64,000 bases of DNA from an uncultured Planctomycetales bacterium (GTDB taxonomy: Bacteria; Omnitrophota; Gorgyraeia; Zapsychrales; Fredricksoniimonadaceae): assembly GCA_964583975.1 (NCBI GenBank), contig CAZOXU010000001.1, positions 35,552 to 99,551 on the forward strand. Direction: 5' to 3'. The position numbers and the translations under genes were made by a program. Of this stretch, positions 12,370 to 58,608 are shown piece by piece (position 1 is the first letter of the stretch; each line of letters begins with the position of its first letter). Under the pieces are notes generated by a model. That model ran no database searches and was not told the origin of the DNA. It saw only the letters and a program-made list of their open reading frames with translations.

Positions 12370-12447
12370 GTCATTCCCGAATGTTTTAATCGGGAATCTA
12401 GAACTTTCTAATTCCTGGGTCCCCGACTAAAACTTTGGGGACGACAT
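12370..12447. repeat. Double-hairpin intergenic repeat, copy A (GTCAT-YCCCGAAT stem-loop-CTAG-second stem-loop-GACGAC)
   Basis: gtcattcccgaatgttttaatcgggaatctag...gtccccgactaaaactttggggacgacat. It exactly fills the cmk-stop to lepA-start gap. Confidence 0.7.
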
Positions 12448-13122
12448 CTATATTTTTATATACTTCATAATAACATCAACACTTTGTTCCACGTTAAGTC
12501 CTGAGGAATCAATAGTGATGGCATCGTCTGCTTTTTTTAATGGACCAACGGCCCGTGTAAAATCTTTCTGGTCACGCTCATGCATATCTTTTTTTAAATC
12601 TTCAATATTGACTTGTTTCCCAGCAGCTTGAAGTTCTTTTAATCGACGCATGGCACGTTCTTCAAAGTCCGCATCAACATAAAATTTATAATTAGCTTGA
12701 GGAAATACAACTGTCCCCTGGTCTCGGCCATCAGTCACCAAAGAACGTCTGGAAGCAATATCCCTCTGCCATTTAACCATGAGCTCTCGGACTCCAGCTG
12801 TACGGGCAGGATAAAAGGTATTGTTGGTAACTTCCGAGCTTCTTATGTCTTGGGCTACATCTTGGCCATCTAAGGTCACATTCATACTACCATCAGGAGA
12901 TTCTTTAAAATCAATCACAGTCTTTTTAGCTAAATCTGTCAGAGCCCCTTCATCTTCTAGATTAACTTTTAATCGAAGAGCCTTAAGGGTCAACGCCCGA
13001 TACATAGCGCCAGTATCCAGATAAGAAATCCCCAATCGTCGGGCCAGACCTTTAGCAACAGTGCTTTTACCCGCCCCGGCTGGACCATCAAGTGTAATAA
13101 CTAAGTGTTTATGTTTTTCCAT
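12448..13122 (-). CDS. cmk: Cytidylate kinase
   Basis: ITLDGPAGAGKSTVAKGLARRLG P-loop and the Cmk fold. Confidence 0.9.
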   Translation of the reverse strand: MEKHKHLVITLDGPAGAGKSTVAKGLARRLGISYLDTGAMYRALTLKALRLKVNLEDEGALTDLAKKTVIDFKESPDGSMNVTLDGQDVAQDIRSSEVTNNTFYPARTAGVRELMVKWQRDIASRRSLVTDGRDQGTVVFPQANYKFYVDADFEERAMRRLKELQAAGKQVNIEDLKKDMHERDQKDFTRAVGPLKKADDAITIDSSGLNVEQSVDVIMKYIKI

Positions 13123-13981
13123 GCGAACCTTCTATGCTTTCTCGTTTAGCTTTGGCAGCTTTAAAAATTTCTTCTAACACAGCTGCATCCGAAGTAACAA
13201 TGGCCTTACGGATGGCAGCTAAAACCTTCACCGTTTCATCTACAGATTTAAGTACATTCTTTTGATTAGATAACACGATATCACGCCAAATGCTTGCATC
13301 CGACGAGGCAATGCGAGTCATGTCGCGTAAGCCTTGCGGAGCTAATTCCAGATGTTGATCTGGGACGGCTTTCATCAAACTAAATGCAATCATATGTGGC
13401 AGATGACTGACAAAAGCTAAACTCTCATCATGTTCTTGAGGAGACATGGTCTTGACTTGTGTTCCCAATTGTGACCAAAAGTGTTTTATTTTTTCTTTAG
13501 CTAAACGATTAGTCTTATCGGTTGGCGTCATGATACAGCTGGCATTTTCATACAAATTAGCATTAGCATAGGTTGGACCTTTTTTCTCAGAACCGACCAA
13601 AGGATGAGATCCTACAAAAAGCACAGAATGATGTAACACCTTTTCTGCTTTCTCAACAATGGCATGCTTGGTACTGCCTAGATCGGTCACAATACAACCA
13701 CGCTGATGTTCTTTAGCCAAAAAATCTAGGGATTCTAAAATAGCGTTCACAGGAGTGGCTAACACAATGAGATCGGCACCAATAATACCTTTTTTAATGT
13801 CCAAAAAACTCTCATCAATGGCCCCAACATCGGTCGCTTCTCTTAAAGCAGTTTCGTGACGGCCAATCCCAACAACCTGACTCGCCAGGGCTTTCTTTTT
13901 GATGGCCAACCCCAAAGAAGCACCCATGAATCCTGTTCCTACAATAGCAACTCGACGAAATAATTGTTTTCGATTAAACAT
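13109..13981 (-). CDS. tyrA: Prephenate (arogenate) dehydrogenase
   Basis: Rossmann motif VAIVGTGFMGASL and the TyrA catalytic region HPLVGSE. Confidence 0.8.
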   Translation of the reverse strand: MFNRKQLFRRVAIVGTGFMGASLGLAIKKKALASQVVGIGRHETALREATDVGAIDESFLDIKKGIIGADLIVLATPVNAILESLDFLAKEHQRGCIVTDLGSTKHAIVEKAEKVLHHSVLFVGSHPLVGSEKKGPTYANANLYENASCIMTPTDKTNRLAKEKIKHFWSQLGTQVKTMSPQEHDESLAFVSHLPHMIAFSLMKAVPDQHLELAPQGLRDMTRIASSDASIWRDIVLSNQKNVLKSVDETVKVLAAIRKAIVTSDAAVLEEIFKAAKAKRESIEGSHGKT

Positions 13982-13996
13982 AGTGTTCCTTAAATT

Positions 13997-15016
13997 TTAT
14001 AGATCTCTATCCACGGCTTGAGCTACGCGTTTACAAGAAACCATTAATTCGGCAAACTTATCTGGCATGAGTGACTGGGCTCCATCAGAAAGAGCTTCTT
14101 CTGGATTATCATGCACTTCAATCATTAAAGCATCACAACCAACGGCAATTCCAGCTCTTGCACCTGCAGCCACATATTCCCAACTTCCAGTTCCGTGGCT
14201 CGGATCAACAACGACTGGCAAATGAGTTAATTTCTTAGCCACCGCCACAGCATTAACATCCAATGTGTTACGGGTAGCTGTTTCAAATGTACGGATACCA
14301 CGCTCACAAAGCATGACATCAAAATTTCCATGAGCCAAAAGATACTCAGCTGACATTAACCATTCTTTGACCGTTGTCGACATACCACGTTTGAGCATCA
14401 CCGGTTTTTTAGAAGCACCAACTTCTTTTAACAACGAGAAGTTCTGCACATTACGTGCGCCAATTTGCAAAATATCGACATACTTAGCCACCAATTCCAC
14501 CTGACGCGTATCCATAACTTCAGAAATCGTACAGATGCTTTCTTCACGGCCAACTTGCTGAAGGATCTTTAAACCTTCTTCTCCCATGCCTTGAAAATCA
14601 TAAGGTGATGTGCGAGGTTTAAATGCGCCACCACGTAAAATATTCGCTCCTTGCTTTTTAATCATCTTGGCAAGCGACTTCATGCCATCATAACTTTCAA
14701 TCGAACAAGGACCTGCCATCACCGCTATTTTCTTGCCTCCCACCTGAGTATTAAATGGAAGCTTAATAATAGTGTCCTGACCTTTTTTAAACTCACGAGA
14801 AACCAGCTTGTAAGGAGCTAATACTTGAAGAACTTGCTCGACCCCAGGAAACACTTCTAAGGGGATCTCACGAAGAGCATCTTCTTTACCAATAAATCCT
14901 ATGACCGTGCGCTCAATACCTCGCGACACATTACTTTTAAGTCCTAGTTTGTTTGCACGATCAACAATATGCTGGATCTGTGCCTCGGTTGCATCCGAAC
15001 GTAAAATAACTATCAT
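13997..15016 (-). CDS. aroF: 3-deoxy-7-phosphoheptulonate (DAHP) synthase, type I-beta, with an N-terminal ferredoxin-like regulatory domain
   Basis: DAHPS/KDO8PS TIM-barrel motifs (KPRTSPY, GARN, VVVDPSHG) preceded by a ~70-aa ACT/ferredoxin-like N-domain. The aromatic gene neighbourhood favours DAHPS over KDO8PS. Confidence 0.7.
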   Translation of the reverse strand: MIVILRSDATEAQIQHIVDRANKLGLKSNVSRGIERTVIGFIGKEDALREIPLEVFPGVEQVLQVLAPYKLVSREFKKGQDTIIKLPFNTQVGGKKIAVMAGPCSIESYDGMKSLAKMIKKQGANILRGGAFKPRTSPYDFQGMGEEGLKILQQVGREESICTISEVMDTRQVELVAKYVDILQIGARNVQNFSLLKEVGASKKPVMLKRGMSTTVKEWLMSAEYLLAHGNFDVMLCERGIRTFETATRNTLDVNAVAVAKKLTHLPVVVDPSHGTGSWEYVAAGARAGIAVGCDALMIEVHDNPEEALSDGAQSLMPDKFAELMVSCKRVAQAVDRDL

Positions 15017-15064
15017 ACTTCCTCCTGTAATGTACGGGCGGGTTCTAAACCCACCCTATATTTA

Positions 15065-16162
15065 TCAGGCAGGTTTGGAACCTGCCACTACACCTTGTAA
15101 TGTTTTTATGAATCTCTTATTTTCTGGCGCTGTTCCAATTGATACTCGAATATAATCTGACAATCCCCAGACTGCCATGTCACGAATAATGACTCCTTTT
15201 TTCAAAAGGGCCTGGGCCACTGCAGAAGCATTTCTCACTTTCACTAATATAAAATTCGTATGACTCTCTTCATGTCTTAATCCCAAATCTTGCAAGCTCT
15301 GATAAATATATTGACGCTGACGTTCAACGTCTTGGGCAATGCGACGATAATAACCCTGATCAGACAAGGCAGCCACCGCAGCTACCTGGGCCATGGAATT
15401 GACATTAAAAGGTTCACGTAAACGATTTAGAATATCAATAATGTTCGGGGCGCCAATCCCATAACCTACACGCAACCCTGCTAAACCATACATCTTTGAA
15501 AAGGTGCGAATGGTCATTAAATTGGGGTATTTCTTCATGAGCTTAAGAGTGTCAGGGTAATCCTTGGCATGCACGTATTCAAAATAAGCTTCATCAAAAA
15601 ATACCAGAGTGTCCTTGCCTACAGCCTTCATAAAATCCTCGGCTTCTTTGGCATTAATATAACTACCCGCTGGATTATCAGGATTTCCAATAAACACAAT
15701 CTTAGTGTTCTTAGTTAATTTAGCTTTCATGCCGGCTAGATCATAGCGAAAATTCTTTAAAGGTACTTCATGGATGCGGGCACCTGCCAGACGACAGGCA
15801 ATTTCATAGATTAGAAAAGAAGGTTTAGCAATGATAACCTCATCACCTTTACCTACAAAAGCTTTAACAGCTAAGACGATAATTTCATCTGAGCCATTAC
15901 CAAAGATTAATTGATTTTCATTGATTTTAAGGTGTCGCGCCAGGGTCTGACGCAGCACAAAGCATCCGCCATCAGGGTAACGGTTAATCTCTTTAGCCGC
16001 TTTACTTAAAGCTGCAAGCACCTTAGGTGATGGTGGATAGGGATTTTCATTCGAAGCAAGCTTGATCACACTGCTTAATTTCAGCTCACGTTTGACTTCT
16101 TCAATGGGTTTTCCCGGAACATAGGGCTTAATGTCAAAAATATACTTATTAGCAACCTGCAC
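15065..16162 (-). CDS. hisC: Histidinol-phosphate / aromatic-amino-acid aminotransferase (class II PLP enzyme)
   Basis: HisC-family fold with PLP lysine region TFSKMYGLAGLRVGY. It sits between pheA and the DAHPS gene, suggesting an aromatic aminotransferase role. Confidence 0.8.
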   Translation of the reverse strand: MQVANKYIFDIKPYVPGKPIEEVKRELKLSSVIKLASNENPYPPSPKVLAALSKAAKEINRYPDGGCFVLRQTLARHLKINENQLIFGNGSDEIIVLAVKAFVGKGDEVIIAKPSFLIYEIACRLAGARIHEVPLKNFRYDLAGMKAKLTKNTKIVFIGNPDNPAGSYINAKEAEDFMKAVGKDTLVFFDEAYFEYVHAKDYPDTLKLMKKYPNLMTIRTFSKMYGLAGLRVGYGIGAPNIIDILNRLREPFNVNSMAQVAAVAALSDQGYYRRIAQDVERQRQYIYQSLQDLGLRHEESHTNFILVKVRNASAVAQALLKKGVIIRDMAVWGLSDYIRVSIGTAPENKRFIKTLQGVVAGSKPA

Positions 16163-16207
16163 TTTAGTTAAATCCTTCTTAAATATAGATTTATAAAGGA
16201 AGGATGC

Positions 16208-17269: not shown

Positions 17270-17272
17270 ATA

Positions 17273-17971: not shown

Positions 17972-17989
17972 TATTTTAAAGTCCTCTGT

Positions 17990-18631
17990 TTATCCCCTCA
18001 TGCCGGGGACTTTTCGTTGGTTGTAAATTTCGTTTAACAATTCTTCAGATGTCATAATTTTACTGTTTCGTTCAACTGCTTTTTGGATCATTTCTTGCGC
18101 TTCAGCTCGTTTATATTGCAATTGTAACAAAATATTTAAGGCTTCTTCCTCTATATCTAATAAATTTAATTTAGGTCTGGTTTCAACGACCTTATCACGA
18201 ATGAGCGTGTATTTGCCCATCTTGCTTTGCAGTTTGGCCACAATTTCCTTGGCCTTCTGCTCGCCTATACCAGGCAAAGTCTTTAAATATTTAGTATCGG
18301 CACGATCGATGGCTTGAGCAATTTCACCAATCGATTTATTCAATGCTTTGACCGCAGCCCGAGGCCCAATTCCTGACACCTTAATAAAGTCGAGGAAGAA
18401 ATCCCGCTCAACTTCATTTAAAAAACCCACCAAAATCTCATTAGCACTGGCCGGGGTTATCTGTAAATAATGATACGTAATTAAGCTGACATTGCCATCG
18501 CTATCTTGATTTTCTTGCAAACGTTGTAAAACAGACGCTGAAACAAAAACCTCGTAGCTTAACGCCCCCGTATCGACGATCACGGTGTTTTCTAAATATT
18601 GAGTAATCTTTCCCTTAATAGATGCAATCAT
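17990..18631 (-). CDS. ruvA: Holliday junction branch-migration complex subunit RuvA. The start was moved to MIASIKGKI because the upstream Met lies inside repeat copy B.
   Basis: RuvA OB-fold N-domain, HhH motifs (LPGIGEQKAKEI) and a C-terminal RuvB-binding domain. The last 5 codons are encoded by a small GC palindrome. Confidence 0.85.
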   Translation of the reverse strand: MIASIKGKITQYLENTVIVDTGALSYEVFVSASVLQRLQENQDSDGNVSLITYHYLQITPASANEILVGFLNEVERDFFLDFIKVSGIGPRAAVKALNKSIGEIAQAIDRADTKYLKTLPGIGEQKAKEIVAKLQSKMGKYTLIRDKVVETRPKLNLLDIEEEALNILLQLQYKRAEAQEMIQKAVERNSKIMTSEELLNEIYNQRKVPGMRG

Positions 18632-18641
18632 GCTGTCCTCT

Positions 18642-18709
18642 GTCATTCCCGAATATTTTAATCGGGAAACTAGTGCTCTAGGTCCCCAATAAATACATTC
18701 GGGGACGAC
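18642..18709. repeat. Double-hairpin intergenic repeat, copy B
   Basis: gtcattcccgaatattttaatcgggaaactag...gtccccaataaatacattcggggacgac, between ruvC and ruvA. Confidence 0.7.
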
Positions 18710-18713
18710 AAAT

Positions 18714-19199: not shown

Positions 19200-19202
19200 A
19201 GT

Positions 19203-19958
19203 TTATTCTTCAGCTGCCATCTTAGCCATTTCTTCTTCAGAAATGTCAAAGTTCGCATGAACATGTTGAATATCTTCGTGATCTTCCAAAGATTCCATCA
19301 AACCCAAAACATTTTTTGCATCAGAACCCTCTACTTTGACCGTAGAATTAGGAATCATGGTCACTTCGGCAGAAGCTGTTTCGATCTTCTTAGCACCTAA
19401 AGCACTCTTAACTGCTTCAAAGGCTGACGGATCACAAATAACTTCAATGGTATCCCCATCAGCTTTAATATCATCAGCGCCAGCCTCTAGGGTCGCTTCC
19501 ATGACAGCATCTTCGCTAGATTTGGATTTATCAATGGTGATATAGCCTTTTTTGGTAAACATCCATGCGGTTGAACCTGCACCCGCTAAAGAACCGCCTT
19601 TTTTACCTAACAAATTACGAACTTCAGCAGTTGTACGATTTTTATTGTCAGTAAGACCTTCAATTAACATAGCTACCCCACCAGGTCCATACGCATCAAA
19701 AACAACTGTTTCATAAACAACGCCTGGTAATTCTCCTGTACCTTTTTTAATCGCATTTTCGACGTTGCTTTGAGGCATATTGCATTCACGGGCACGAGCC
19801 ACGGCAGCACGCAATCGGAAATTGGTATCCATGTTACCGCCGCCTTCTTTAGCAGCAGCTGTAACCTCTTTACTGACCTTGGTAAATACGGCTCCGCGCT
19901 TGGCGTCTTCCGCACCTTTTTTATGTTTAATTTTTGCCCATTTTGAATGACCTGACAT
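19203..19958 (-). CDS. yebC: YebC/PmpR-family DNA-binding transcriptional regulator
   Basis: MSGHSKWAKIKHKKG N-terminus, diagnostic of the YebC family. Confidence 0.9.
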   Translation of the reverse strand: MSGHSKWAKIKHKKGAEDAKRGAVFTKVSKEVTAAAKEGGGNMDTNFRLRAAVARARECNMPQSNVENAIKKGTGELPGVVYETVVFDAYGPGGVAMLIEGLTDNKNRTTAEVRNLLGKKGGSLAGAGSTAWMFTKKGYITIDKSKSSEDAVMEATLEAGADDIKADGDTIEVICDPSAFEAVKSALGAKKIETASAEVTMIPNSTVKVEGSDAKNVLGLMESLEDHEDIQHVHANFDISEEEMAKMAAEE

Positions 19959-20003
19959 TGTAAAAACCTCCTAAGTACTATTATTCACTTCCGTTGATAA
20001 AAA

Positions 20004-20370
20004 TAAACAAGTCAATAAGCCGAGTTTTGTGATCCCCACGTCTTGCTGTCGCAAGACAGCTGTGGGGACGATGACCATTTGACTAACTTTCACGCTTACG
20101 CATGAACATCTTGCAGCCTACCCGAGAATACAAGCGAGCCGGATTGCTCTCTTCTCCTATTTGGCATTGCTCCATGCAGAGATTGCTCGTTTCACTCCCA
20201 TTTAAGGGCATCGTCACTGTAGCTCTCCAGCCAAAGGCTGGTCCGCTTTTGGCGGAAATCCTCATCTATCTGACGATAGACGGTCTCGCATTATCGAGAT
20301 GCATTATCCTTTGGAGCTCGGACTTTCCTCCCCGATACCTTTAGTACCAGGGTGGCCATCCTGACTTGTT
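20004..20370 (-). ncRNA. rnpB: RNase P RNA (bacterial type A), ~367 nt. The 5' ~67 nt overlap the 3' end of the rnhA ORF.
   Basis: The minus-strand transcript reads GGGGAGGAAAGUCCGAGCUCCAAAGG (P4 5' strand, near identical to the universal GGAAAGUCCGGGCUCC), and a P3 hairpin CCCUGGUAC-UAAAG-GUAUCGGGG sits just 5' of it. It carries a GCCAAAUAGG motif and a P18-like hairpin GCUGUC-UUGC-GACAGC inside an outer GUCCCCAC/GUGGGGA stem. The P4 3' strand is CUCGGCUUAU. The 5' AACAAGUCAG pairs with the 3' UUGACUUGUU as P1/P2, followed by a U-tract. Confidence 0.7.
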
Positions 20371-20756
20371 TTTAAACCCTGACAAGCAAGTTTATCAGCC
20401 TCTTTATTTTGTTCCCGAGGCACATGCTTAAACTCTACTTGTCTAAAACCTTCGATTAATTTCTTAACTTCTTCAAAGAGCGGTCGGATATTCTCATGCT
20501 TTACTTTGTAATTACCCATAATCTGTTCGTACATCAACTGACTATCGGTCCTGACTAAAACTTCATCGGCTTTTAATTTTAAGGCTTCCTGCAACCCGCA
20601 AATTAATGCCGTATATTCTGCAATGTTATTGGTAGCCAACCCAATGCTCTGGGAAATTTCTTTAACGATCTGTTGTTGATTCCTGATAACCACACCGATG
20701 GCAGCAGGACCAGGATTACCAGAACAAGCCCCATCCGTATATATTTCTAGTCTCAT
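20304..20756 (-). CDS. rnhA: Ribonuclease HI
   Basis: MRLEIYTDGACSGNPGPAAIGVVI and catalytic D/E/D residues; 150 aa. The C-terminal ~23 codons are co-linear with the rnpB 5' region. Confidence 0.85.
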   Translation of the reverse strand: MRLEIYTDGACSGNPGPAAIGVVIRNQQQIVKEISQSIGLATNNIAEYTALICGLQEALKLKADEVLVRTDSQLMYEQIMGNYKVKHENIRPLFEEVKKLIEGFRQVEFKHVPREQNKEADKLACQGLKTSQDGHPGTKGIGEESPSSKG

Positions 20757-21478
20757 AAATCATCTTCAAGATAAAGAATACGAGCACACTGATCACAGCT
20801 CACTAACTGATCATTCATTTTAATCTGATGAATAATCTGCTCTGTCAAATGCATAAAACATCCGCCACACGCATGATCCTTAACAGGAACTATTCCTAAA
20901 CCTTCTTTATTTTGCAAAACTCTTTCGTAACGGCTTAAAATATCCGGACGCACATCGGGGGTTACACGAGCTCTTTGGGATTCCTTTACCTTTAACTGAT
21001 CACCCGCAACGGCAATGGCATCCTCAAGCTGTTTTTTCTTGATATTGAATTCTTTCTCAAAAGTTGCTACAACAGCCTTTTCAACTTCGACAGCCTTGCG
21101 TGCAGCTTCAATCTCATCCATACCTAAAAGAAGTTTTTCTTCTACTAAAGATTTATCAGCCTTAATATTTTCAATCTCCATCAATTTCGCCTGATATTCT
21201 TTGTTGGTCTTTAAAGCCAATAGTTGCCCATCAGCCTTAATAATGCCTTCTTCTTTGGATTTAAGATCACCTTCTAATTCTTTTTGTTTTAAAAGGACCT
21301 GTTTTAACTGATCCTCAAGACTTTTAAATGTAGATTTTTTTGATTCAAATTCTTGCTTTAGCGCTTCGATCTCTGATGGTTTATCTTTGAGTTCCATCTT
21401 AAGACGATAGGCTTCAAAGTCCATAGCTTGTAATTCTATAAGTTTTTTGATCTGATCTTTTATTGAAATGGTCGTCAT
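20753..21478 (-). CDS. COG1579-type zinc-ribbon / coiled-coil protein (putative nucleic-acid binding)
   Basis: A long coiled coil followed by a C-terminal C4 zinc ribbon (CGGC...CDQC). Confidence 0.65.
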   Translation of the reverse strand: MTTISIKDQIKKLIELQAMDFEAYRLKMELKDKPSEIEALKQEFESKKSTFKSLEDQLKQVLLKQKELEGDLKSKEEGIIKADGQLLALKTNKEYQAKLMEIENIKADKSLVEEKLLLGMDEIEAARKAVEVEKAVVATFEKEFNIKKKQLEDAIAVAGDQLKVKESQRARVTPDVRPDILSRYERVLQNKEGLGIVPVKDHACGGCFMHLTEQIIHQIKMNDQLVSCDQCARILYLEDDL

Positions 21479-21490
21479 ATTTTTCCAAAA

Positions 21491-21564
21491 TGGACTCAGT
21501 AGGACTTGAACCTACGGCCTTCGCCATGTGAGGGCGACGCTCTAACCAGCTGAGCTATGAGTCC
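21491..21564 (-). tRNA. tRNA-Val (anticodon CAC)
   Basis: Reverse-complement GGACUCAUAGCUCAGCUGGUUAGAGCGUCGCCCUCACAUGGCGAAGGCCGUAGGUUCAAGUCCUACUGAGUCCA. It folds as a cloverleaf with anticodon loop CUCACAU; no encoded CCA. Confidence 0.85.
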
Positions 21565-21578
21565 GTTACCACATTAAG

Positions 21579-21652
<74 letters not shown>

Positions 21653-21747
21653 AAAAATACTTTCACAGGCCTGTTAAAGAAGGGACAATATTAGCATAAT
21701 TTATATATAGAGGGAAAGGAAAATTTCCTACGCATCCAGCTTTTAGA

Positions 21748-22440: not shown

Positions 22441-22478
22441 CCATATAAAAAACCATCTAAAACCTTGAATAAATAAAC

Positions 22479-25400
22479 TTAGATCTTCGCCACTTGCTCA
22501 AATGAGCGAGTATCTTCTAATCCTAAGATAGGTAGGACACTGTTAAGAGGAGTAATACGAAGAATAACGGGGATAACGCCTGAAAAATCTCCTTTTTGAA
22601 ATTCTGCAACCATCGCTGGATTTCCGCCAAAGGCGGACCAGCCTCTGGCTGGAAACTTCACTGCAACACCTTGAGCATCTTTAGTGATATCCAGCCCCAT
22701 ATTCTTAGCGTTTAAGTCAATACCACCTTTTGCAGCCACTTGAGCTGGATCTTCGCGCTCTGCTGTATCATCAACCCTTTTGAATTCAACCATCGCTGCA
22801 TCTGAAGCATTTAAACTAATTTCTGAGGAAACCCTATTAGAGAAAAACTCTCCGGTAAAGCCAAATCCAAATAACATGTCAGGAAAACGAGCCTTAAGGA
22901 ATGCTTTTAATGTTTCATTCAATGCTGTCCTCACCTTTATGAACTGATCGTGATCAATCAAAGACACCCCATCCCCATCTGATCGCTCTTCTTGTGAAGA
23001 ACCCGCACGCACTAAATTAGTAATATTAATTTCAAGACCAAGGACACTATTGCTGACTTCCAAATCTTTAGCTTCGATCCCCAGATCCAATCTGGTGTTC
23101 AAATCAACCAGAATCTTATACTTGTATTTTTCAATTCCTATCTTTAACGCTTCTTGTTCCTTTGCAATCTGTTCCTTTATTTGATCTTTTGAAATTTGAT
23201 CTAATAGCCTGCTCAAGAATCTTGGATCACTACCTTCTAAAACCCAAGGGTGAGATCTTTCAAAAATTCGAACAAGCCTCCATGCTTCTTTGTACCGGCC
23301 GGCTGCTTTCAAAGACTCAAAATCTATTTCTAATTTCTTTAAAAGTCTTCGTTGTTTTGACTCCAGATGAACATTTAATTCCAATAAAACATCTTCCTCA
23401 TCCATATACAACAGAGGATTTTGTTCTTTAAATCTAATGATTAAATCTTCAGCTCCTTTGAAATCGTCCCTCTCTACAAATTCTCTAACATTCGAATTCA
23501 GCACCCTCAAAGATTCTTTCCTTTCAGATTCTTCTTTAGGAAAATCTGCTTTGCGATGTGCCAAAATAATTTGTTGAGCAATAATTACTCTTTGCGCATT
23601 CGTTGTTGGACCATACTGTTTTTCTTCCTCGATGACGCGCATTTTCCACTCATCAAAAAGACTAGAAAAAACGACTTGCGGATTATTTTTAAGATATTGA
23701 TCATCATCTAACGGAAGCTGATCATCAAACCTTCCCTGTCTCATTTCAATAAGAAATCCATTAAAATAAAACAACTCATCTTCATCTTTAACAGAGAAGC
23801 CTTTGACAATCCTATCCCTATCTTGATCAAAAATATCTCTGCGTTTCTTTTGTATAAATCTCTCCCCAGCGCTAATCATGTTCTCTTTAACGAAGTTTTT
23901 AGTTCCAATTTGGATTTGACGCCTTAATATGTCAACTCTCCAGGCCCAATAAAAAATGGATGAATAATAATCTTCAACTGGCAACTGAAAACTATTTTTC
24001 TCTTCTAATCTCATACTTTGACTATTCAATGGCCACCCACTCTTCACAGCAATTAAAAACATATAAAAATGATACAAGGCTTCTCGCTCATCATAGATCG
24101 TTGGATCTGGCTCTAACAATTTTTTATTTCGTTCTAAAATAGCATTAATGACCTGATTAAATCGCTCTGGCGTAGCTTCATCTGCAAGCCCTTCTACTTC
24201 ATCAATCATTTGAACTGTTTCTTTAGATGGATCCCTATCAAACGCTTTCCTAAAATTCACCTGTGTTTGACCTTCCTTATATTCTTCAAAATTGGTTGAT
24301 ATCATCCACTGGACATAATCAATAAAATCTTTAAACGCAAGAAGTTGCGGACTATCCGGGGCAGATGCATTCATCGCTGCATCAGAAAACTTTTCAGCAG
24401 CTTTGGCATCAACAACATAGGTTACATTAGAATGAGCCTGCAAATAGGAGGCTGAGCTTTCAGGTGAGATTGAACCTGTTACAGATTGATATACAGCCTC
24501 AGCTTTCTTATCTCCGGTGGCTGCAATCATAACTTCTTGAGCGTCCATAATGGTTCCAATACCCACACTCAAGGCTTCGACTGGCATCAAAGAAACATCA
24601 TCTTTAAAATACCTACCGTTATCAATGATGGTTTGAATCGCCAAATAGACATGCCTGGTCCGTGAACGGGCAATTTCTTGAGCATTTTCAAACTTAACAT
24701 CATTAGGATTAAGGCCTAGTGATCCAACGGCATCACGAAACACTTGGAGGTTTTGATAATCTTGAGCATCTAAATAAATGACGGTTTTCTGCTTCCTGAT
24801 CTTGCGAGTTAAACGTTCGATAGCTTCAGGTATTTGAGGATTATTGGCCGCAACAAATTTCTCGGTTAAAAACCTAATCAGCTCTACTTCTTCTCTTAAT
24901 TGGGCATGCCTTTGCAAAACTTGCTTAACCTTCTCAACTCCACCTTTAACATAGAACTCATTGAATCCTCTGAGATTTTCAATATTCCCAGCTTCAGCAC
25001 CATTAATCACAATAATCGGTTCATTAAATGCTATATGACGGTCTGTACCAATCCCGCCATAGGCTAGCTCAACGCCACCAGCATCCCTAATAACCTTTTC
25101 ATAACGCTCTACCTCTGCCTCGATATCTGTAGCATTACCATTTAAAAGATGCGCATTTTCTTCCTTCCATCCCAAATCCAATTTCCTCAATTTGCTAAAT
25201 AAATGTGTTTCCATATATTGCCTGTAGCTTTGGGAATTCTTGTCCCACTGCTCAGCTTCAGGCCCTACATAATATTCATCCATGTTAATAGTAATCAAAT
25301 TAGAAAGATCGATTTGTTCAGCTTTGACAATTTCTACAAATAATCTATAAAATTCTTCCTGGGTTCCGCCCGTAGGTAAAATAACTACTGTTTTCTTCTT

Positions 25401-26975
25401 TAAATGATTATTGATCTTAACAATTTCAGCCATACGTCTGGCAAAACGATAACCAACAGATTCAGGCAGGTCATATGTTTCGCCTTTAACTTTACCTACA
25501 TTCCATTTAGATATTTTAAGATGATTGCTTACCTTCCATCTCCTCATTGCTCTGTATAAGGTTAGGTCACCACCTTCAGATTTGCGCTTATTTACTAAAA
25601 TTCCAGAATTATTAGGCACACTATCAATTAATCGTCTTTCTAATTCTCTACTCGTCGATCTCTGTGTGGGATAAAGTTTTGTAGTTGGTAAAGGTATTTC
25701 AAAATCTTGCGCTGCTTTATACAAAGTCTGATCTCCACCATTTTCTATCGTTTCATGAATTAAAAAACTCGCATTATTAGGCAACCCTGCCTTGTCTCTT
25801 TCTGCCAACTTTGCTACCACTGATTCTGGAGTCGGATACTTTATACTCATGGCTCGATCAACCGCCACTGTAGCTATAGCTAAATCACCGACAGCCTCTG
25901 TGCTTTCGCCAGCTTGTAAACTTTGCACCCTTTGAATTAAACGATCAGGGGCGATTTCAAAAAACTTTTCTCCACCAGAGAAATACTTGCGAGCAATAGG
26001 TTGTTTGCTTACCGCATCCATATCTTCCTTTATATAATTAAACACACCTTTTTTATAAGCCTTCAGATACTGCTCATAAATTTTCTCTTTATCTTTTACG
26101 TCATCAGAGAGAACGCCGCCAGTCTTAGCCTTATTGCTGTAAACTTGATTCAAGAGAGCATCTTTCAAAGCTAGCTTGTACCAGGAAGCTAGGATCATAG
26201 AATGAAAAATCTGACGTAAAGGAGCGAAGTTTTTGCCCTCATTAACTTCTTTTTCTATTTCTGGAAGGATGAGATCGCGAACGATTTGATTTGAATCCTG
26301 TGCCCGTACGGCATTCTTATTCATCGCCAAATAATCTTCTTCCAACATCACCTTCAAATGCGAACCAACCACATAGGCTGTATTATTACGTTCTAAAATC
26401 TTAGCCTTATCAGCCATGATCCAAACCTTATTGAAGGTATTAACAGGCACCTCTTTGTCACCATAGAGTTGCTGGGCTTTAGCATAGATTCTGCTCCAAA
26501 ACTCCTTACCCAATTGCTTCTCTGGGTAGATTAACGAGGCAGTTAATTGTTTAAGGATATAATCCTGAGCCAACATATCCCGACCCAGCTCAGTTTTGCC
26601 TAATTCCTCTGGAACGATCCTATCTTTCTCATAGGGAGATAAATTGACCCACAAGTCTGCCTCGGGGATAGTTAAAGCGGCTAGAAAATATTTGATTAAT
26701 TTCTGCGATTCTAATTGTAGGGGCGAGGCGCCTGCCGACGAGGCAGGGATTTGCACAGATAATCCCGAATGACCTGTATCTAGGATAAAATCGAATAACA
26801 ACGGATTCTCAGGATGGACCTTCAGGCCTTTGATCAGCACAGGAGTATAGGTAGAGCTCAAATTTACCATGGTGCCCGGCTCGGGCAAAGGAGTCGAAGC
26901 ATAGCTGCGCTGAGGAGCAATGACCGAAGTAGATATAAAGCTAATAATAAGACATAGGGAAATAATACGTTTCAT
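22479..26975 (-). CDS. Large secreted protein (1498 aa) with an internal glucosamine-6-phosphate deaminase / 6-phosphogluconolactonase (NagB-fold) domain
   Basis: Signal peptide MKRIISLCLIISFISTSVIA. Central region matches NagB/Pgl motifs (VVILPTGGTQEEFYRLFVEIVK, INMDEYYVG, YGGIGTDRHIAFNEP, SVGIGTIMDAQEVMIAATGDKKAEAV). The N- and C-terminal ~450 aa each carry no motif I recognise. Confidence 0.6.
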   Translation of the reverse strand: MKRIISLCLIISFISTSVIAPQRSYASTPLPEPGTMVNLSSTYTPVLIKGLKVHPENPLLFDFILDTGHSGLSVQIPASSAGASPLQLESQKLIKYFLAALTIPEADLWVNLSPYEKDRIVPEELGKTELGRDMLAQDYILKQLTASLIYPEKQLGKEFWSRIYAKAQQLYGDKEVPVNTFNKVWIMADKAKILERNNTAYVVGSHLKVMLEEDYLAMNKNAVRAQDSNQIVRDLILPEIEKEVNEGKNFAPLRQIFHSMILASWYKLALKDALLNQVYSNKAKTGGVLSDDVKDKEKIYEQYLKAYKKGVFNYIKEDMDAVSKQPIARKYFSGGEKFFEIAPDRLIQRVQSLQAGESTEAVGDLAIATVAVDRAMSIKYPTPESVVAKLAERDKAGLPNNASFLIHETIENGGDQTLYKAAQDFEIPLPTTKLYPTQRSTSRELERRLIDSVPNNSGILVNKRKSEGGDLTLYRAMRRWKVSNHLKISKWNVGKVKGETYDLPESVGYRFARRMAEIVKINNHLKKKTVVILPTGGTQEEFYRLFVEIVKAEQIDLSNLITINMDEYYVGPEAEQWDKNSQSYRQYMETHLFSKLRKLDLGWKEENAHLLNGNATDIEAEVERYEKVIRDAGGVELAYGGIGTDRHIAFNEPIIVINGAEAGNIENLRGFNEFYVKGGVEKVKQVLQRHAQLREEVELIRFLTEKFVAANNPQIPEAIERLTRKIRKQKTVIYLDAQDYQNLQVFRDAVGSLGLNPNDVKFENAQEIARSRTRHVYLAIQTIIDNGRYFKDDVSLMPVEALSVGIGTIMDAQEVMIAATGDKKAEAVYQSVTGSISPESSASYLQAHSNVTYVVDAKAAEKFSDAAMNASAPDSPQLLAFKDFIDYVQWMISTNFEEYKEGQTQVNFRKAFDRDPSKETVQMIDEVEGLADEATPERFNQVINAILERNKKLLEPDPTIYDEREALYHFYMFLIAVKSGWPLNSQSMRLEEKNSFQLPVEDYYSSIFYWAWRVDILRRQIQIGTKNFVKENMISAGERFIQKKRRDIFDQDRDRIVKGFSVKDEDELFYFNGFLIEMRQGRFDDQLPLDDDQYLKNNPQVVFSSLFDEWKMRVIEEEKQYGPTTNAQRVIIAQQIILAHRKADFPKEESERKESLRVLNSNVREFVERDDFKGAEDLIIRFKEQNPLLYMDEEDVLLELNVHLESKQRRLLKKLEIDFESLKAAGRYKEAWRLVRIFERSHPWVLEGSDPRFLSRLLDQISKDQIKEQIAKEQEALKIGIEKYKYKILVDLNTRLDLGIEAKDLEVSNSVLGLEINITNLVRAGSSQEERSDGDGVSLIDHDQFIKVRTALNETLKAFLKARFPDMLFGFGFTGEFFSNRVSSEISLNASDAAMVEFKRVDDTAEREDPAQVAAKGGIDLNAKNMGLDITKDAQGVAVKFPARGWSAFGGNPAMVAEFQKGDFSGVIPVILRITPLNSVLPILGLEDTRSFEQVAKI

Positions 26976-27023
26976 AGGTACAAAAAAGATATCACATAAT
27001 ATATATATTAGCCAATTCTCGAC

Positions 27024-27062
27024 AAAAAAATCCCCTTAACTCCTTTAAAAGAAATTAAGGGG
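27024..27062 (-). terminator. Rho-independent terminator after glnK
   Basis: On the minus strand, ccccttaa-tttcttttaaaggag-ttaagggg followed by a TTTTTTT run. Confidence 0.55.
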
Positions 27063-27073
27063 AAAATACCATT

Positions 27074-27433: not shown

Positions 27434-27503
27434 TGTCATCCCCGAATGTATTTATCGGGGATCTAGTTCTCTGGATTCCCGACAAAAGCTTTCGGGAATG
27501 ACA
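27434..27503. repeat. Double-hairpin intergenic repeat, copy C
   Basis: gtcatccccgaatgtatttatcggggatctag...attcccgacaaaagctttcgggaatgacat, between amt and glnK. Confidence 0.7.
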
Positions 27504-44081: not shown

Positions 44082-44097
44082 TTCTGGGATTTAGTGG

Positions 44098-44130
44098 AAG
44101 TATAACATGCTCCCCATGGCAGTGTCAAGG
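44098..44130 (-). promoter_or_regulatory. Candidate sigma-70 promoter for cvpA (TTGACA-N17-TTATAC on the minus strand)
   Basis: The minus strand reads cTTGACActgccatggggagcatgTTATACt ~15 nt upstream of the cvpA ATG. Confidence 0.3.
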
Positions 44131-44250
44131 AAGCGCTCCCTACTTTCTTAAGATTTAATAAAGTATTTATCCTATTCATATTTATAGAGTTATAGCATAA
44201 TGGGGATTAAAAGAAAAGCTTTTTCTTTAAAGGGGATTCCGATACCTTAT

Positions 44251-47583: not shown

Positions 47584-47662
47584 GCATTTCTCCCGTAAAA
47601 AAGTCGAATAACAATACTTTATTAATCTTTCGTCGGAGTGTCAATTGTGAAATGAAATATTT

Positions 47663-48856: not shown

Positions 48857-48895
48857 AAATAAAATTTTAAATGGTTTTTAAAACGGGATAATTTA

Positions 48896-50086: not shown

Positions 50087-50092
50087 AATTTC

Positions 50093-53687: not shown

Positions 53688-53693
53688 AAAGTC

Positions 53694-54734: not shown

Positions 54735-55692
54735 AACGAATCCTTGGATCTAAACGTGCAAGAGCTAAATCAGCCAGCAGATTACCCAACAGCAGCAAGA
54801 AGCTCACCAACATCAAATTAGCCATGACGACATAAATATCTTTCGAGCGAACGGCCGTTAACATTAATGAACCCAAACCAGGCCATGAGCAGACGATTTC
54901 GATAAGCGCCGCACCACTGATAAGCCCTGAAAGTTCGTAGCCTAATAAGGTCACTAAGGGATTAAAGGCATTCTTAAGGGCATGAACGTAAATCACCCGA
55001 TTCTCAGGCAAACCCTTTGCTCGAGCGGCAGTGATATATTGCTGACGTAACACAGAAAGCATATTGCCCCTCATAATGCGCATAAGCGAAGCAATCGAAG
55101 CTAAGGAAAGCACCACAGTTGGGATGACCAGATGTCGAGCCAGATCGATCTGCTTATCAAGCCATGAGAAACTCTCATAATCTGGGCTGTGCATACCTCC
55201 TAAAGGCAAAATTCCCCACTGAGCGACCATATACAATAAAATCATGGCTAAAAAGAAGCTCGGGGTTGAAAACGCAGCAAAAGAAAATAGCGATAATGCC
55301 CTGTCAGCCAAACGATTACGATGTAAAGCAGCTAAAATACCTAAAGGAATAGCCACGGCCCAGGTTAATAAAAATGAAGCCATGGATAGAATTAAGGTAT
55401 TGCCCAACCGACCGACAATCAAATCAGTTACCGGAACGTTATAATAAAAAGAATATCCCAACTCTCCTGTAAAGAAATTCATGAGCCATCGGCTGTATTG
55501 GACTAATAACGGCTCATTCAATCCATACAAAGCCTCGTAGCGAGCAATGGTCTCTTGGGAAATCTGTGGATTGAGTTTGAGCGAATCAAAATAATTACCC
55601 GGTGTCATATGCATCAGCCAAAAGGTAAAGAAACTGATTCCTATTAACAGCAGAAAAGCGATAGCGATTCTTTGAAGGATAAATTTGATCAT
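54721..55692 (-). CDS. Peptide ABC transporter permease (OppB/DppB type)
   Basis: BPD permease fold; N-terminus MIKFILQRIAIAFLLLIGISFFTF. Confidence 0.8.
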   Translation of the reverse strand: MIKFILQRIAIAFLLLIGISFFTFWLMHMTPGNYFDSLKLNPQISQETIARYEALYGLNEPLLVQYSRWLMNFFTGELGYSFYYNVPVTDLIVGRLGNTLILSMASFLLTWAVAIPLGILAALHRNRLADRALSLFSFAAFSTPSFFLAMILLYMVAQWGILPLGGMHSPDYESFSWLDKQIDLARHLVIPTVVLSLASIASLMRIMRGNMLSVLRQQYITAARAKGLPENRVIYVHALKNAFNPLVTLLGYELSGLISGAALIEIVCSWPGLGSLMLTAVRSKDIYVVMANLMLVSFLLLLGNLLADLALARLDPRIRYGKD

Positions 55693-57392
55693 GGCTTATT
55701 GCTCTTAATATAAATTTCTTCCGGATTATGAAACGCGCCAGCATAGGCTGAGGGTTTAAGATTACCAAAACGGTTTCTTACAGCAAAAATATCAGCAGCC
55801 AATACGGTATAAATTAAAGGAAGCTGCTCAGCAGCAATCACTTGAAATTCATCATAAAGGATTTTACGTTTATTCTCATCTAGCTCGGAGGCTCCTTGAT
55901 TGTAAATTTCATCCAAACGTCTCTCCCAGTCTGTTGCAGGCTTACTTTGCTTAGGATTCCACACATGTAATTGTCCTGAGGAGGCCCATACATTGCGGCC
56001 AAAGTGTGGCTCGACTCCCCCGGTTAAGCCAATCAGCACAGCATCCCAATCGTAACTGGCCATCAACTTACTGACCAAGGTATTAAATTCCAGCGGCAGG
56101 AAGTTAACTTTAATTCCAAGTTTCTCTAAATCGGCCCGAATCATATACGCCATTTGAATGTTTTCGCTGTGCTGCGCGCTGGTGCTGGTATACAAATTAA
56201 ATTCTAAAAGGTGACCATCCTTATCATAAAGAAGCTTGTCTCGATAAATAAAGCCTCCTTGTTGCAGTGTTTGCCTCGCTTTTTCTAAATCATAGGAGTA
56301 TCCCTTAACCTTCGAATTATAAAAGAAGCCACTCGATGGACTCATAGGTCCATCTTGGGAATACCCCAACTCATTAAATAGAATCTGGATTATCTTCTTT
56401 TTATCAATGGCTTGGGCTACAGCTCGTCTAAAATAAACATTCTCAAACCACGAACGTTTGATTGGATCCAAAAAAGGCTTTTGGGTTTTAGGATTAATGC
56501 CTGGGTTTTGATTAAAAACGATAAAGCTGCTGCCGAAATCAGCACCAGCCTCATAAATCGTAAAGTTTCTTTTAGTCTCCAAAGGTTTCAATAAAGGATA
56601 GTTCTGTCCACTAACCCCAATCGAATCTAATTCCCCATCAATGAATTTAAGCACACCGGCATCAGCATCAGGGATAATTAAATATATAATCTTGTCTAAA
56701 TACGGTAAAGCATCGCCTTGAGCTGATCGCTTCCAATAATGAGGGTTGCGCTTAAATACCAAGCGCTCCCCAGGTCGATATTCATCCAAATAAAATGGAC
56801 CTGTTCCTATAATCTCGCGAGGTTTTGTATTAACACCCCAAGTAAAAGCAAATCTATCTTGGCTAACAATTTTTTCAAGGCAATGTTTGGGCAAAATCGA
56901 TTGGGACATGCTTCGCAAGAAAGGTGCAAACTTGACTGGTAGATGAAATTCAACCGTGTAGTCATCTATCTTCTTAACTTCAAGAATTTTGCCATCTATT
57001 GTAAAAATATCTCTGGAGGGTGCGGGAATTTTGGGATTATAAATCAAATTCAAAAAGGTAAAAACAACATCATCAGCCTTCAAAGGCTGACCATCAAACC
57101 AGCGCACATCCTGGCGTAGATAAAAAGTCCATGTCAGTCCATCCTCTGACACCTTCCAGCTTTGAGCAAGATTGGGGATGACTTTCAAGGTAAACGGGTC
57201 AAGCGTAGTCAAACCTTCAAAGAGTATTCCCGTAACTAAAGAACTCGAGGTTTCAGAAGCGGTGATTGTATTAAATGTTTTAGGATCGGAAGGGGCAGAT
57301 AAGACTAGCTGTCCGCCGTAATGATTCTCTGCAGCATAGGCAGAAAAGCTTAAAAACAAGACAGCTAGAAGAACGAAGAAAGGTTTTAACAC
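55689..57392 (-). CDS. Peptide/nickel ABC transporter substrate-binding protein (family 5)
   Basis: Signal peptide, SBP_bac_5 architecture, 567 aa. Confidence 0.75.
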   Translation of the reverse strand: MLKPFFVLLAVLFLSFSAYAAENHYGGQLVLSAPSDPKTFNTITASETSSSLVTGILFEGLTTLDPFTLKVIPNLAQSWKVSEDGLTWTFYLRQDVRWFDGQPLKADDVVFTFLNLIYNPKIPAPSRDIFTIDGKILEVKKIDDYTVEFHLPVKFAPFLRSMSQSILPKHCLEKIVSQDRFAFTWGVNTKPREIIGTGPFYLDEYRPGERLVFKRNPHYWKRSAQGDALPYLDKIIYLIIPDADAGVLKFIDGELDSIGVSGQNYPLLKPLETKRNFTIYEAGADFGSSFIVFNQNPGINPKTQKPFLDPIKRSWFENVYFRRAVAQAIDKKKIIQILFNELGYSQDGPMSPSSGFFYNSKVKGYSYDLEKARQTLQQGGFIYRDKLLYDKDGHLLEFNLYTSTSAQHSENIQMAYMIRADLEKLGIKVNFLPLEFNTLVSKLMASYDWDAVLIGLTGGVEPHFGRNVWASSGQLHVWNPKQSKPATDWERRLDEIYNQGASELDENKRKILYDEFQVIAAEQLPLIYTVLAADIFAVRNRFGNLKPSAYAGAFHNPEEIYIKSNKP

Positions 57393-57399
57393 CGTTTTT

Positions 57400-57753
57400 T
57401 TATTTTGCTGCGTTAGTGATGACCTGTTCTACTGGTTTTGGTTCACTTACCCTAACTGTTGGTTCTTCAGCCTTAGGCGTTGCTGGGGCTGCGGCCACAG
57501 GTAATTTAGCATTGGACATCAAAGATTTGTGTCCTTTACTAGCATTGAGCGCTAAAAATAATGAAGTGCTAAAAAAGATAACTGCCAGAATGGTTGAAAA
57601 TCTCACCATAAATGAATTGGTCTGCGTACCAAACATGGATTCTGCTGAAGTAAAGCTTTCAGCCAAACCTCCGCCACGGCCAGCTTGCATTAAAATAGTA
57701 ATGACCAACAAAATACAAACAACAATGTGAACAAACATGATAAAACCAATCAT
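57400..57753 (-). CDS. secG: Preprotein translocase subunit SecG
   Basis: TM1 plus LMQAGRGGGL (the LLQ.GKG.GL motif). It is adjacent to tpiA, as in many bacteria. Confidence 0.8.
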   Translation of the reverse strand: MIGFIMFVHIVVCILLVITILMQAGRGGGLAESFTSAESMFGTQTNSFMVRFSTILAVIFFSTSLFLALNASKGHKSLMSNAKLPVAAAPATPKAEEPTVRVSEPKPVEQVITNAAK

Positions 57754-57768
57754 CGATTTCTCCTTCGA

Positions 57769-58527
57769 TTATTTCTTAGCAGATTTAACAATCGCTGCAA
57801 AAGATGGAGCTTTTAAACTTGCTCCCCCTACCAAAGCCCCATCAATATCAGACTTGGCAATTAAAATCCCAATATTTTCTGGTGTCACTGAACCACCATA
57901 TTGAATACGCACCGATTGAGACACTTCTTTTCCAAATAATTTGCTTAATAGTTCTCTAATATAAGCATGCACTTCCTGGGCCTGCTCAGGTGTTGCTGTC
58001 TTACCTGTTCCGATAGCCCAGACAGGTTCATAAGCTAAAACAATTTTCTTCATTTCATCGGAAGTCAGGTTCGCTAATGACCCCTCGCAGTGGTTCTTAA
58101 TTACATCAAAAGTCTTATTGGATTCACGTTCAGCTAAATTCTCCCCTACACACACAATAGGAGTTAAACCATGCGCTAATGCGGCACGGATACGCTTATT
58201 GACGGTTTCATTGGTCTCACCAAAAAATTGACGACGTTCGCTATGACCAATAATCACATATTGGACACCTAAATCTTTGAGCATCGGAGCTGAAACCTCA
58301 CCAGTAAACGCGCCACTGTCCTGCCAGTAAACATTTTGAGCTCCTAAAGAAATATTTGTTTCCATGACAACTTCTGAAACATCTCCCAGGGCTGTAAATG
58401 GTGGGCAAACCACAATATCAACGCCATTAATATCTGACACTTCTCGTTTTAATTCCTCGACCAAGCTCATGGCTTCGCGAGAAGTTTTATTTAATTTCCA
58501 ATTTCCAGCAATAATGATTTTTCGCAT
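57769..58527 (-). CDS. tpiA: Triosephosphate isomerase
   Basis: AGNWKLN, the catalytic IIGHSERR, and YEPVWAIGTGKTA. Confidence 0.95.
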   Translation of the reverse strand: MRKIIIAGNWKLNKTSREAMSLVEELKREVSDINGVDIVVCPPFTALGDVSEVVMETNISLGAQNVYWQDSGAFTGEVSAPMLKDLGVQYVIIGHSERRQFFGETNETVNKRIRAALAHGLTPIVCVGENLAERESNKTFDVIKNHCEGSLANLTSDEMKKIVLAYEPVWAIGTGKTATPEQAQEVHAYIRELLSKLFGKEVSQSVRIQYGGSVTPENIGILIAKSDIDGALVGGASLKAPSFAAIVKSAKK

Positions 58528-58540
58528 ATACCCTCATCAT

Positions 58541-58608
58541 GTCATTCCCGAATGCTTTTGTCGTGAATCTAGTGTCTGGATCCCCGATTAAAATATTCGG
58601 AGACGACA
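58541..58608. repeat. Double-hairpin intergenic repeat, copy D (the most degenerate copy)
   Basis: gtcattcccgaatgcttttgtcgtgaatctag...atccccgattaaaatattcggagacgac, between pgk and tpiA. Confidence 0.65.

Follow-up and report, generated by a model that had tools for sequence, protein, structure and literature searches.

Four dimeric hairpin elements in the window

The stretch analysed here, referred to throughout as the window, comprises 64 kb of DNA from an uncultured bacterium of the Omnitrophota (contig CAZOXU010000001.1) and has a G+C content of 39.6%. Its minus strand carries four pairs of neighbouring genes identified by Pfam, cmk/lepA, ruvC/ruvA, amt/glnK (the latter encoding a P-II protein) and pgk/tpiA, and the spacer of each pair is taken up by one element consisting of two inverted hairpin units of about 33 nt, eight units in total (Table 1). 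With bounds set from TGTC to GACA, the elements occupy 70-78 nt of spacers of 82-95 nt. They start 1-10 nt past the upstream stop codon, which for cmk lies at 12448-12450, and end some 5-15 nt ahead of the ribosome-binding site of the next gene.

When both strands of the window are searched without filters, a covariance model of the half-unit returns exactly these eight units with scores of 44-60 bits (E values of 2e-9 to 7e-14), and the best match outside the elements has an E value of 0.72. The 13-mer GTCATYCCCGAAT has four exact occurrences in the window, and a four-way alignment of the elements displays a mean column identity of 76% with long invariant runs. Each element is an imperfect palindrome, and the copies are mutually 81-91% complementary over 34-70 nt. 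The unit is composed of TGTC(A/G)T, an 8-bp stem that starts with AT or GT, a 9-nt A/T-rich loop, the return stem, and C(T/C)AG. The stem is ATTCCCGA/TCGGGAAT, and in some partner units GTCCCCGA/TCGGGGAC. The TGTC, the C after the stem and the final AG are invariant in the 15 Omnitrophota units that were aligned (the eight of the window and seven further ones). Dimer D is the most decayed of the four copies.

An earlier note on this DNA had reported four copies of a double stem-loop at these sites, each filling nearly the entire spacer, and a reading of the sequence together with the eight model hits places them within 1 nt of where it had them. The repeats are real, but the two stem-loops are inverted copies of one unit and not two different hairpins. 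The common orientation ascribed to all four copies rests only on small differences between the units (ATT.../CTAG versus GTC.../CCAG), and both units of dimer C are of the GTCAT type. The note was also right that one copy supplies ruvA with a spurious start: an ATG at 18644-18646 (minus strand), within the terminal ATGACA of dimer B, adds five codons to the open reading frame (ORF) before the likely start at 18631, and the RuvA_N domain begins at residue 6. The glnK ORF is likewise lengthened by an in-frame ATG in the terminal ATGAC of dimer C. At Rfam gathering thresholds, only RNase P RNA and two tRNAs are found in the window, with no match at the elements.

Folding and covariation

Either strand of the elements, as RNA or as DNA, is predicted to fold into one long hairpin (-23 to -40 kcal/mol, z of -3 to -8.5). 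For RNA of the transcribed strand the values are -23.6 to -37.6 kcal/mol with z of -3.3 to -8.5, so that the folding proposed in the earlier note gave strong hairpins, on both strands alike. Within a dimer, stem pairs 1 and 3 are not the same in the two units, and these differences are compensated inside each unit (A-T to G-C; T-A to C-G). Stem cells are paired in 97.5% of cases, as opposed to 7-61% when the partner column is slid, and changes on both sides occur in eight stem cells, a number reached by none of 500 shuffles. Because the compensated differences lie within units, it is the small hairpin of each unit that is conserved. The dimers are thus heterodimers, and the long-hairpin form would carry mismatches.

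Relationship to CGTC-tagged REPs and to NTS/SRM motifs

The general architecture corresponds to the CGTC-tagged REPs described by Di Nocera, De Gregorio and Rocco in 2013, in which a CGTC tag, or its variants TGTC or CCTC, lies beside a stem-loop (PMC3733652). In that super-family the stems are of 8-9 bp and their first two residues are almost always A and T, the loops are of 4 nt in family 1 and 5 nt in families 2-4, with exceptions in Bradyrhizobium and Thermotogae, and a short unpaired 3' tail has the consensus CCA (PMC3733652). HH dimers, with the tags outside, predominate, heterodimers are common, and the repeats are often found near stop codons and sometimes inside genes (PMC3733652). 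The super-family includes the Neisseria repeat dRS3 (CGTC-1) and the Rickettsia repeats RPE-6 (CGTC-1) and RPE-4 (CGTC-4) (PMC3733652). The units of the window possess the tag (as TGTC), the 8-bp stem, the short tail and the HH dimers; their loops, by contrast, are of 9 nt and not of 4-5 nt. The element therefore belongs to the CGTC-REP super-family but, owing to its loop, to none of families 1-4.

A second line of work starts from Neisseria, where dRS3 is ATTCCC-N8-GGGAAT and approximately half of its copies form a 28-nt oriented hairpin, the NTS (CGTCATTCCCGCGMAVGCGGGAATCYRG), that contains the dRS3 sequence (Nat Commun 2025, PMC11893778). SsnA, a GIY-YIG protein of 94 amino acids (aa), binds the NTS and cuts just upstream of it, on single-stranded DNA only and on one strand only; binding depends most on the C after the palindrome, and cleavage on the three bases that precede it (PMC11893778). 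It is established that Ssn enzymes cut their cognate hairpins as single-stranded DNA and that, in Neisseria, the integration of transforming DNA that carries the NTS is lowered as a result. A related motif, the SRM, is present near 71% of ssn homologues, and an SsnA homologue is encoded by 81% of the genomes with more than 200 SRMs (PMC11893778). The oriented flanks of the SRM/NTS, namely GTC before the palindrome and C right after it, are invariant in all 15 aligned Omnitrophota units.

The window thus contains a long-loop variant of a described super-family, in Omnitrophota, that is missed by the published SRM motif. The earlier note was essentially right in calling it a REP/BIME/RPE-like miniature element, since the units are CGTC/TGTC-tagged REPs of the super-family of RPE-4, RPE-6 and dRS3. 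Where it recognised no named family, there is one, the CGTC-tagged REPs or NTS/SRM (PMC3733652, PMC11893778). Omnitrophota are not named in the main text of the 2025 paper, nor among the taxa quoted from the 2013 paper.

Distribution across genomes

The unit pattern GTCATYCCCGA-N7-11-TCGNGRANCTAG was scanned over 185,579 species genomes, for which a rough chance expectation is a few matches. At least 111 genome stretches were matched, from about 15 phyla by record title. Among the matches listed, Omnitrophota account for at least 18 loci from eight metagenome-assembled genomes (MAGs), and many loci are from Gammaproteobacteria. Also among them are Beta- and Zetaproteobacteria, Desulfobacterota, Nitrospirota, Bacteroidota, Ignavibacteriota, Planctomycetota, Elusimicrobiota, Caldisericota, Spirochaetota, Synergistota, Deferribacterota, Dadabacteria and Schekmanbacteria.

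Most of the listed loci have an inverted partner unit a few to about 45 nt from the matched unit. The inner stems of the partners covary (CCCGA, CCCGC, CCTGC, CCGGC) between constant GTCATTCC and GGAATCYAG. The loop is of 9 nt in all units of the window and in 193 of the 288 units of the listed genome loci, whose tails read CTAG in 131 and CCAG in 68. Clear pairs in these loci are arranged with the tags outward in 64 cases, inward in 6 and in tandem in 3; in the window all four are tags-outward. Single units and tandem arrays also occur, and partners and spacers vary.

Presence and absence at orthologous sites

Syntenic relatives whose TpiA is 85-89% identical have a pgk/tpiA spacer of 7 nt (locus L195) or 17 nt (L197/L198), and in L193 it is an unrelated sequence of 66 nt; no unit was found in these relative loci (93 kb in all). 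Where an organism name is attached to the TpiA relatives, it is Candidatus Omnitrophica or Omnitrophota. The opposite case is provided by a related MAG (L090, with 69-77% nucleotide identity to the window), which carries a dimer at the very position at which, in the window, stop and start codons overlap (TAATG) without a spacer. This dimer is inverted relative to the same genes when compared with the closely related dimers of the window. It lies in-frame between the start codon and a lipoprotein signal peptide, in the region 2045-2494 (minus strand) of L090. In-frame units or dimers within ORFs are likewise present in L058, L109, L014 and L111. In the region 3-875 (minus strand) of L058 (Omnitrophota nzgw308), a dimer that reads LSFPNASVGNLEVANPGSPIKTFGDD separates the TPP_enzyme_N from the TPP_enzyme_M domain of an acetolactate-synthase-like protein. 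The in-frame copies of L058 and L090 resemble the insertions of RPEs in Rickettsia. A public short-read contig with an identical tpiA terminates inside dimer D, as expected for a multi-copy repeat.

A census of 120 pattern-matching units of other genomes, taken from the matches listed, gave 53 co-directional, 15 convergent and 16 divergent gaps, a split in line with that of the background (448/94/88). With respect to transcription, 28 units are oriented in the opposite and 25 in the same direction; in Omnitrophota the ratio is 10:5, with 4 of the 10 coming from the window. Because 53 of the 57 gene gaps of the window (93%) are co-directional, the location of all four elements in such gaps is unremarkable. 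Neither the intercistronic preference nor the fixed orientation proposed in the earlier note is seen in these data, and its conserved RNA processing or stability module gains no support, with relatives lacking the element at pgk/tpiA and an inverted dimer in L090. Taken together, the empty orthologous sites, the L090 dimer, the unbiased census and the in-frame copies point to elements that are probably recent, selfish and tolerated insertions and not a conserved device for RNA or operon control.

Association with ssn genes

A search for ssn or other GIY-YIG genes in the window and the 111 listed loci (phmmer with E. coli YhbQ; tblastn) returned L013 and L039 only. L013, from a Thiotrichaceae MAG, has a GIY-YIG gene of 97 aa (PF01541 at 1e-16). 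A full dimer of the type seen in the window lies about 100 nt upstream (TGTCATTCCCGAATGTTTTTGTCGGGAATCTGG ... CTGGATCCCCGATAGAAACATTCGGGGATGACA), and three units follow downstream, the first of them 33 nt past the stop codon. A metagenome scan with the L013 Ssn protein yielded 80 loci encoding relatives with 64-88% identity. When the proteins of these contigs were compared with those of the window and its relatives, as a way to spot Omnitrophota among them, nothing exceeded 45% identity. A unit is located within 600 bp of ssn in 74 of the 80; a match to the published SRM is present in 67, and the canonical NTS in 31. These genes appear to fit the operational picture of Ssn given in the 2025 paper. 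Where both flanks were available, 37 of 64 metagenome loci have ssn bracketed by units with their tags outward, at median distances of 7 nt upstream of the start and 4 nt past the stop codon.

Units with 9-nt and with 4-nt loops co-occur at the same ssn genes. The 9-nt-loop CCCGA units adjoin ssn in L112, L139, L150, L152, L154, L156 and L158, and those of L112 and L139 are 94-97% identical to the units of the window. Since ssn genes are bracketed, tags-outward, by units of an identical type, the dimers of the window resemble in their polarity an ssn cassette minus its gene.

A 96-aa Ssn-like protein (P0170) carries an Omnitrophica label, and its gene, on contig L199 of an Omnitrophota MAG, is bracketed by short-loop units. 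The cassette lies amid a TIR-domain gene, two HTH_17 excisionase-like genes, a primase-polymerase-like gene and a large serine recombinase (L199 525-8450), and this neighbourhood adjoins the housekeeping genes miaB/miaA/hflX. The context suggests that ssn is carried here on an integrated mobile element.

Proposed origin and alternative explanations

Based on these results, the elements are probably tags-outward HH heterodimers of CGTC/TGTC-tagged REP units that act at the DNA level, as gene-less, non-autonomous copies of an SRM-ssn-SRM cassette inserted in short intergenic spacers of this Omnitrophota lineage. Whenever the strand becomes single-stranded, during replication or repair or in incoming DNA, each unit would fold into its 8-bp hairpin, and two invariant features, the TGTC tag on its 5' side and the C directly behind the stem, would be placed at the positions that the Neisseria Ssn uses to cut and to bind. 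A cognate Ssn of the host genome may recognise the long-loop units, and its activity, with repair of the cuts or recombination, could copy the dimers to new sites; the strong hairpin in four polycistronic mRNAs would then be a side effect. That the dimers are indeed spread in trans by a GIY-YIG single-strand nuclease, as a selfish system comparable to REPIN/RAYT with a different enzyme fold and a wider reach than the 2025 census, is a tentative proposal, which we regard as possible but somewhat on the doubtful side.

Several results weigh against a reading of the elements as products of an Ssn system. The published SRM search motif, HGTCWYN(0-2)YYVSBRHN(0-5)WNVSBRGN(0-2)RNCYNB (PMC11893778), has no match in the window, while the Neisseria control matches, and the canonical NTS motif likewise has none. 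The SRM miss is due to the 9-nt loop, where the motif allows 0-5, and to the A of the inner stem; the 5' and 3' parts fit. No ssn gene was found in the 64-kb window (tblastn, E <= 1) nor in the 22 Omnitrophota loci examined. NCBIfam and PDB gave no specific assignment of the GIY-YIG proteins to Ssn/cd10448; the family confirmed for them is Pfam PF01541. None of the four sites shows a visible target-site duplication. We know of no transposition mechanism and no joining activity for Ssn. Furthermore, when the palindrome is altered with the hairpin kept, the Neisseria enzyme no longer cuts (PMC11893778), so that a cognate enzyme would be needed to recognise the units of the window.

The least improbable alternative is that the elements are selected RNA modules, whose hairpin would keep 3' exonucleases away from the upstream cistron, act as a site of processing or adjust how well the following gene is translated, as REP/BIME sequences of E. 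coli do in some operons. Their position between co-transcribed genes in all four cases, right behind a stop codon and ending just before the next ribosome-binding site, speaks for such a role, and so do the strong folds of the transcribed strand; many REPs, moreover, act as RNA according to Di Nocera et al. (PMC3733652). However, the untranscribed strand folds equally well, the orthologous pgk/tpiA junction is empty in close relatives, and the L090 dimer has no counterpart in the window. The orientation among the matches listed is unbiased, co-directional gaps are not enriched over background, most gaps of the window are co-directional anyway, and copies occur in-frame inside genes. We consequently hold this explanation to be unlikely. 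These points argue against selection for an RNA role and not against incidental RNA effects, and, judging from the predicted folds, some influence of a hairpin of -24 to -38 kcal/mol on the four mRNAs is plausible. A related notion, that of intrinsic terminators or attenuators within the operons, draws on the strong G+C-containing hairpins between genes. On the transcribed strand, no T-run follows any of the four elements; neither strand is called terminator-like at any of them, and no promoter-like site above shuffle expectation is seen for the downstream genes themselves. A canonical terminator is called directly after glnK (27063-27031, minus strand). The terminator reading was therefore rejected, and we give it practically no credence.

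Mobile-element explanations with other enzymes share more with the proposed Ssn cassette copies. REPINs, REP doublets mobilised by a RAYT (an IS200/IS605-like Y1 tyrosine transposase) encoded elsewhere in the genome, have the same outline of two inverted hairpin units able to form one long hairpin, and the complementary strand of our units starts with CTAG and then the hairpin, which is reminiscent of the GTAG tag. The conserved tag is nonetheless TGTC/CGTC and not GTAG, and whereas RAYT genes are flanked by GTAG repeats, no dedicated transposase was found for CGTC repeats (PMC3733652). The gene that the units bracket, and adjoin in most metagenome loci, encodes a GIY-YIG protein and not a Y1 transposase, the latter having been scanned for neither exhaustively nor in all loci. 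A REPIN origin is accordingly very improbable. Ordinary miniature inverted-repeat transposable elements (MITEs), derived from an insertion sequence with a DDE transposase and with the hairpin units as terminal inverted repeats, would account for the small size, the inverted ends (TGTCAT...ATGACA), the multiple copies and the presence/absence polymorphism. The lack of a visible target-site duplication at all four sites, the occurrence of units also as single copies or tandem arrays and with differing partners and spacers, and the finding that units bracket ssn but no transposase ORF in the loci examined, leave this explanation with a very slight chance, smaller still than that of the REPINs.

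Other repeats and RNA genes

Composite and clustered arrangements of the unit were observed in other genomes. Downstream of ssn in L013 (5420-5850, minus strand), the unit is part of a composite of about 146 bp in three tandem copies, and L051 (Vibrio superstes) has four units 104-207 bp apart; both resemble the clustered arrays reported for Neisseria and Wolbachia. Among L048 and L081 (both Omnitrophota), L107, L108 and L027, some partner units nest a second small hairpin, GTCCCGCCATGGCGGGAC, in their loop, whereas at other loci a different repeat adjoins the unit, either GTCATTGCGAGGAGC...GAAGCAATC or cattctgagcgaagcgaagaatc. The nested hairpins and neighbouring repeats hint at several co-resident families of hairpin repeats.

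The window itself contains a second repeat, a double mini-hairpin of 36 nt (CCAGCCAAAGGCTGG TCCGCTTTTGGCGGA AATCC), whose two copies at 20226-20261 and 22618-22653 are 94% identical and in opposite orientations. One copy is in the RNase P RNA gene, within a 54-nt stretch that stands against 13 positions of the Rfam model, apparently in the P9 region. The other is translated in frame as FPARGWSAFGGNP (aa 1440-1452), close to the C-terminus of a 1498-aa ORF (22479-26975). A regular-expression search for this repeat in the window and the loci returned the two window copies only; in L014, a similar sequence comes after an SRM unit. A gene for a 150-aa RNase H/RVT_3-like protein (20304-20756, minus strand) lies directly upstream of that for RNase P RNA, and the genes of tRNA-Val and tRNA-Met are located nearby, in the region 19950-21660. 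The intrinsic terminator behind glnK (27031-27063, minus strand) has a 15-pair stem followed by TTTTTTT; it closes the amt-glnK operon and is separate from dimer C.

Table 1. Hairpin dimers and units of the window, with the RNase P RNA gene and the ssn cassette of an Omnitrophota MAG
Feature	Position	Strand	Location	Sequence or remark	Score or fold
Dimer A, 78 nt	12369-12446		cmk/lepA spacer	tags outward	model 60.5 + 44.2 bits; -36.7 kcal/mol, z = -6.9
Unit A_L	12369-12401	+	dimer A	TGTCATTCCCGAATGTTTTAATCGGGAATCTAG	
Unit A_R	12415-12446	-	dimer A	TGTCGTCCCCAAAGTTTTAGTCGGGGACCCAG; 13 nt separate A_L and A_R	
Dimer B, 70 nt	18641-18710		ruvC/ruvA spacer		model 53.3 + 53.8 bits; fold z = -7.0
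Unit B_L	18641-18673	+	dimer B		
Unit B_R	18678-18710	-	dimer B	4-nt spacer between B_L and B_R	
Dimer C, 70 nt	27434-27503		amt/glnK spacer	both ends GTCAT type	model 56.4 + 53.3 bits; fold z = -8.5
Unit C_L	27434-27466	+	dimer C		
Unit C_R	27471-27503	-	dimer C		
Dimer D, 69 nt	58540-58608		pgk/tpiA spacer		model 53.5 + 47.1 bits; fold z = -3.3
Unit D_L	58540-58572	+	dimer D	one stem mismatch (TCGTG)	
Unit D_R	58576-58608	-	dimer D	two G.T pairs	
RNase P RNA gene	20000-20372		window		135 bits (gathering score 100)
ssn cassette	6291-6678		contig L199	GCA_018896715.1, JAHILR010000006.1	

Implications

If the proposed origin is correct, the Ssn system would extend further (into Omnitrophota, Nitrospirota, Elusimicrobiota and others) than is apparent from the 2025 census, because the published SRM motif does not detect the 9-nt-loop subtype. 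For the same reason, and whatever the origin, censuses of the repeats and of Ssn undercount this subtype. The occupation by ssn genes of the spacer position of a dimer offers a concrete, testable model for the multiplication of the hairpins, a question that the 2013 and 2025 papers left unsettled. With the long-loop units, the CGTC-REP/NTS family reaches into Omnitrophota and many other uncultured lineages. For the window, the best reading is that recent insertions have enlarged four operon junctions which would otherwise be tight, and that the elements are not regulatory features to be annotated. On the practical side, such repeats break short-read assemblies, create false upstream starts, as for ruvA and glnK, and can lie in-frame within genes.

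Comparison with known systems

Among the closest described relatives are the NTS/SRM hairpins, with which the units share the 5' (C/T)GTCAT tag, a stem that starts with ATTCCCG, the return stem CGGGAAT and the 3' C-Y-R-G. They differ in the loop, which is of 9 nt and A/T-rich instead of 4 nt, and in the inner stem, CCCGA/TCGGG instead of CCCGCG. They are also arranged as tight dimers with spacers of 3-13 nt and not as clusters around genes, the host belongs to the Omnitrophota, and no ssn gene is seen in the 64 kb. In comparison with the CGTC-REPs, the TGTC tag variant, the 8-bp stem starting with AT, the short tail, the HH heterodimers, the proximity to stop codons and the occasional in-frame copies are common features, whereas the tail is CTAG/CCAG and not CCA and, as noted above, the loop is longer than in families 1-4.

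RPEs are generally longer than the elements of the window. Like those of Rickettsia, the latter are small palindromes of intergenic DNA that also occur in-frame within protein genes, as in L058, but host lineage and loop sequence are different. Finally, the REP/BIME and REPIN/RAYT systems of E. coli and Pseudomonas likewise consist of short hairpins in inverted pairs, extragenic and multi-copy, with an associated gene bracketed by the same units, a parallel that was drawn for the Ssn system in the Ssn paper itself (PMC11893778). In those systems, the GTAG tag is combined with an HUH Y1 transposase, whereas here the CGTC/TGTC tag is combined with a GIY-YIG nuclease.

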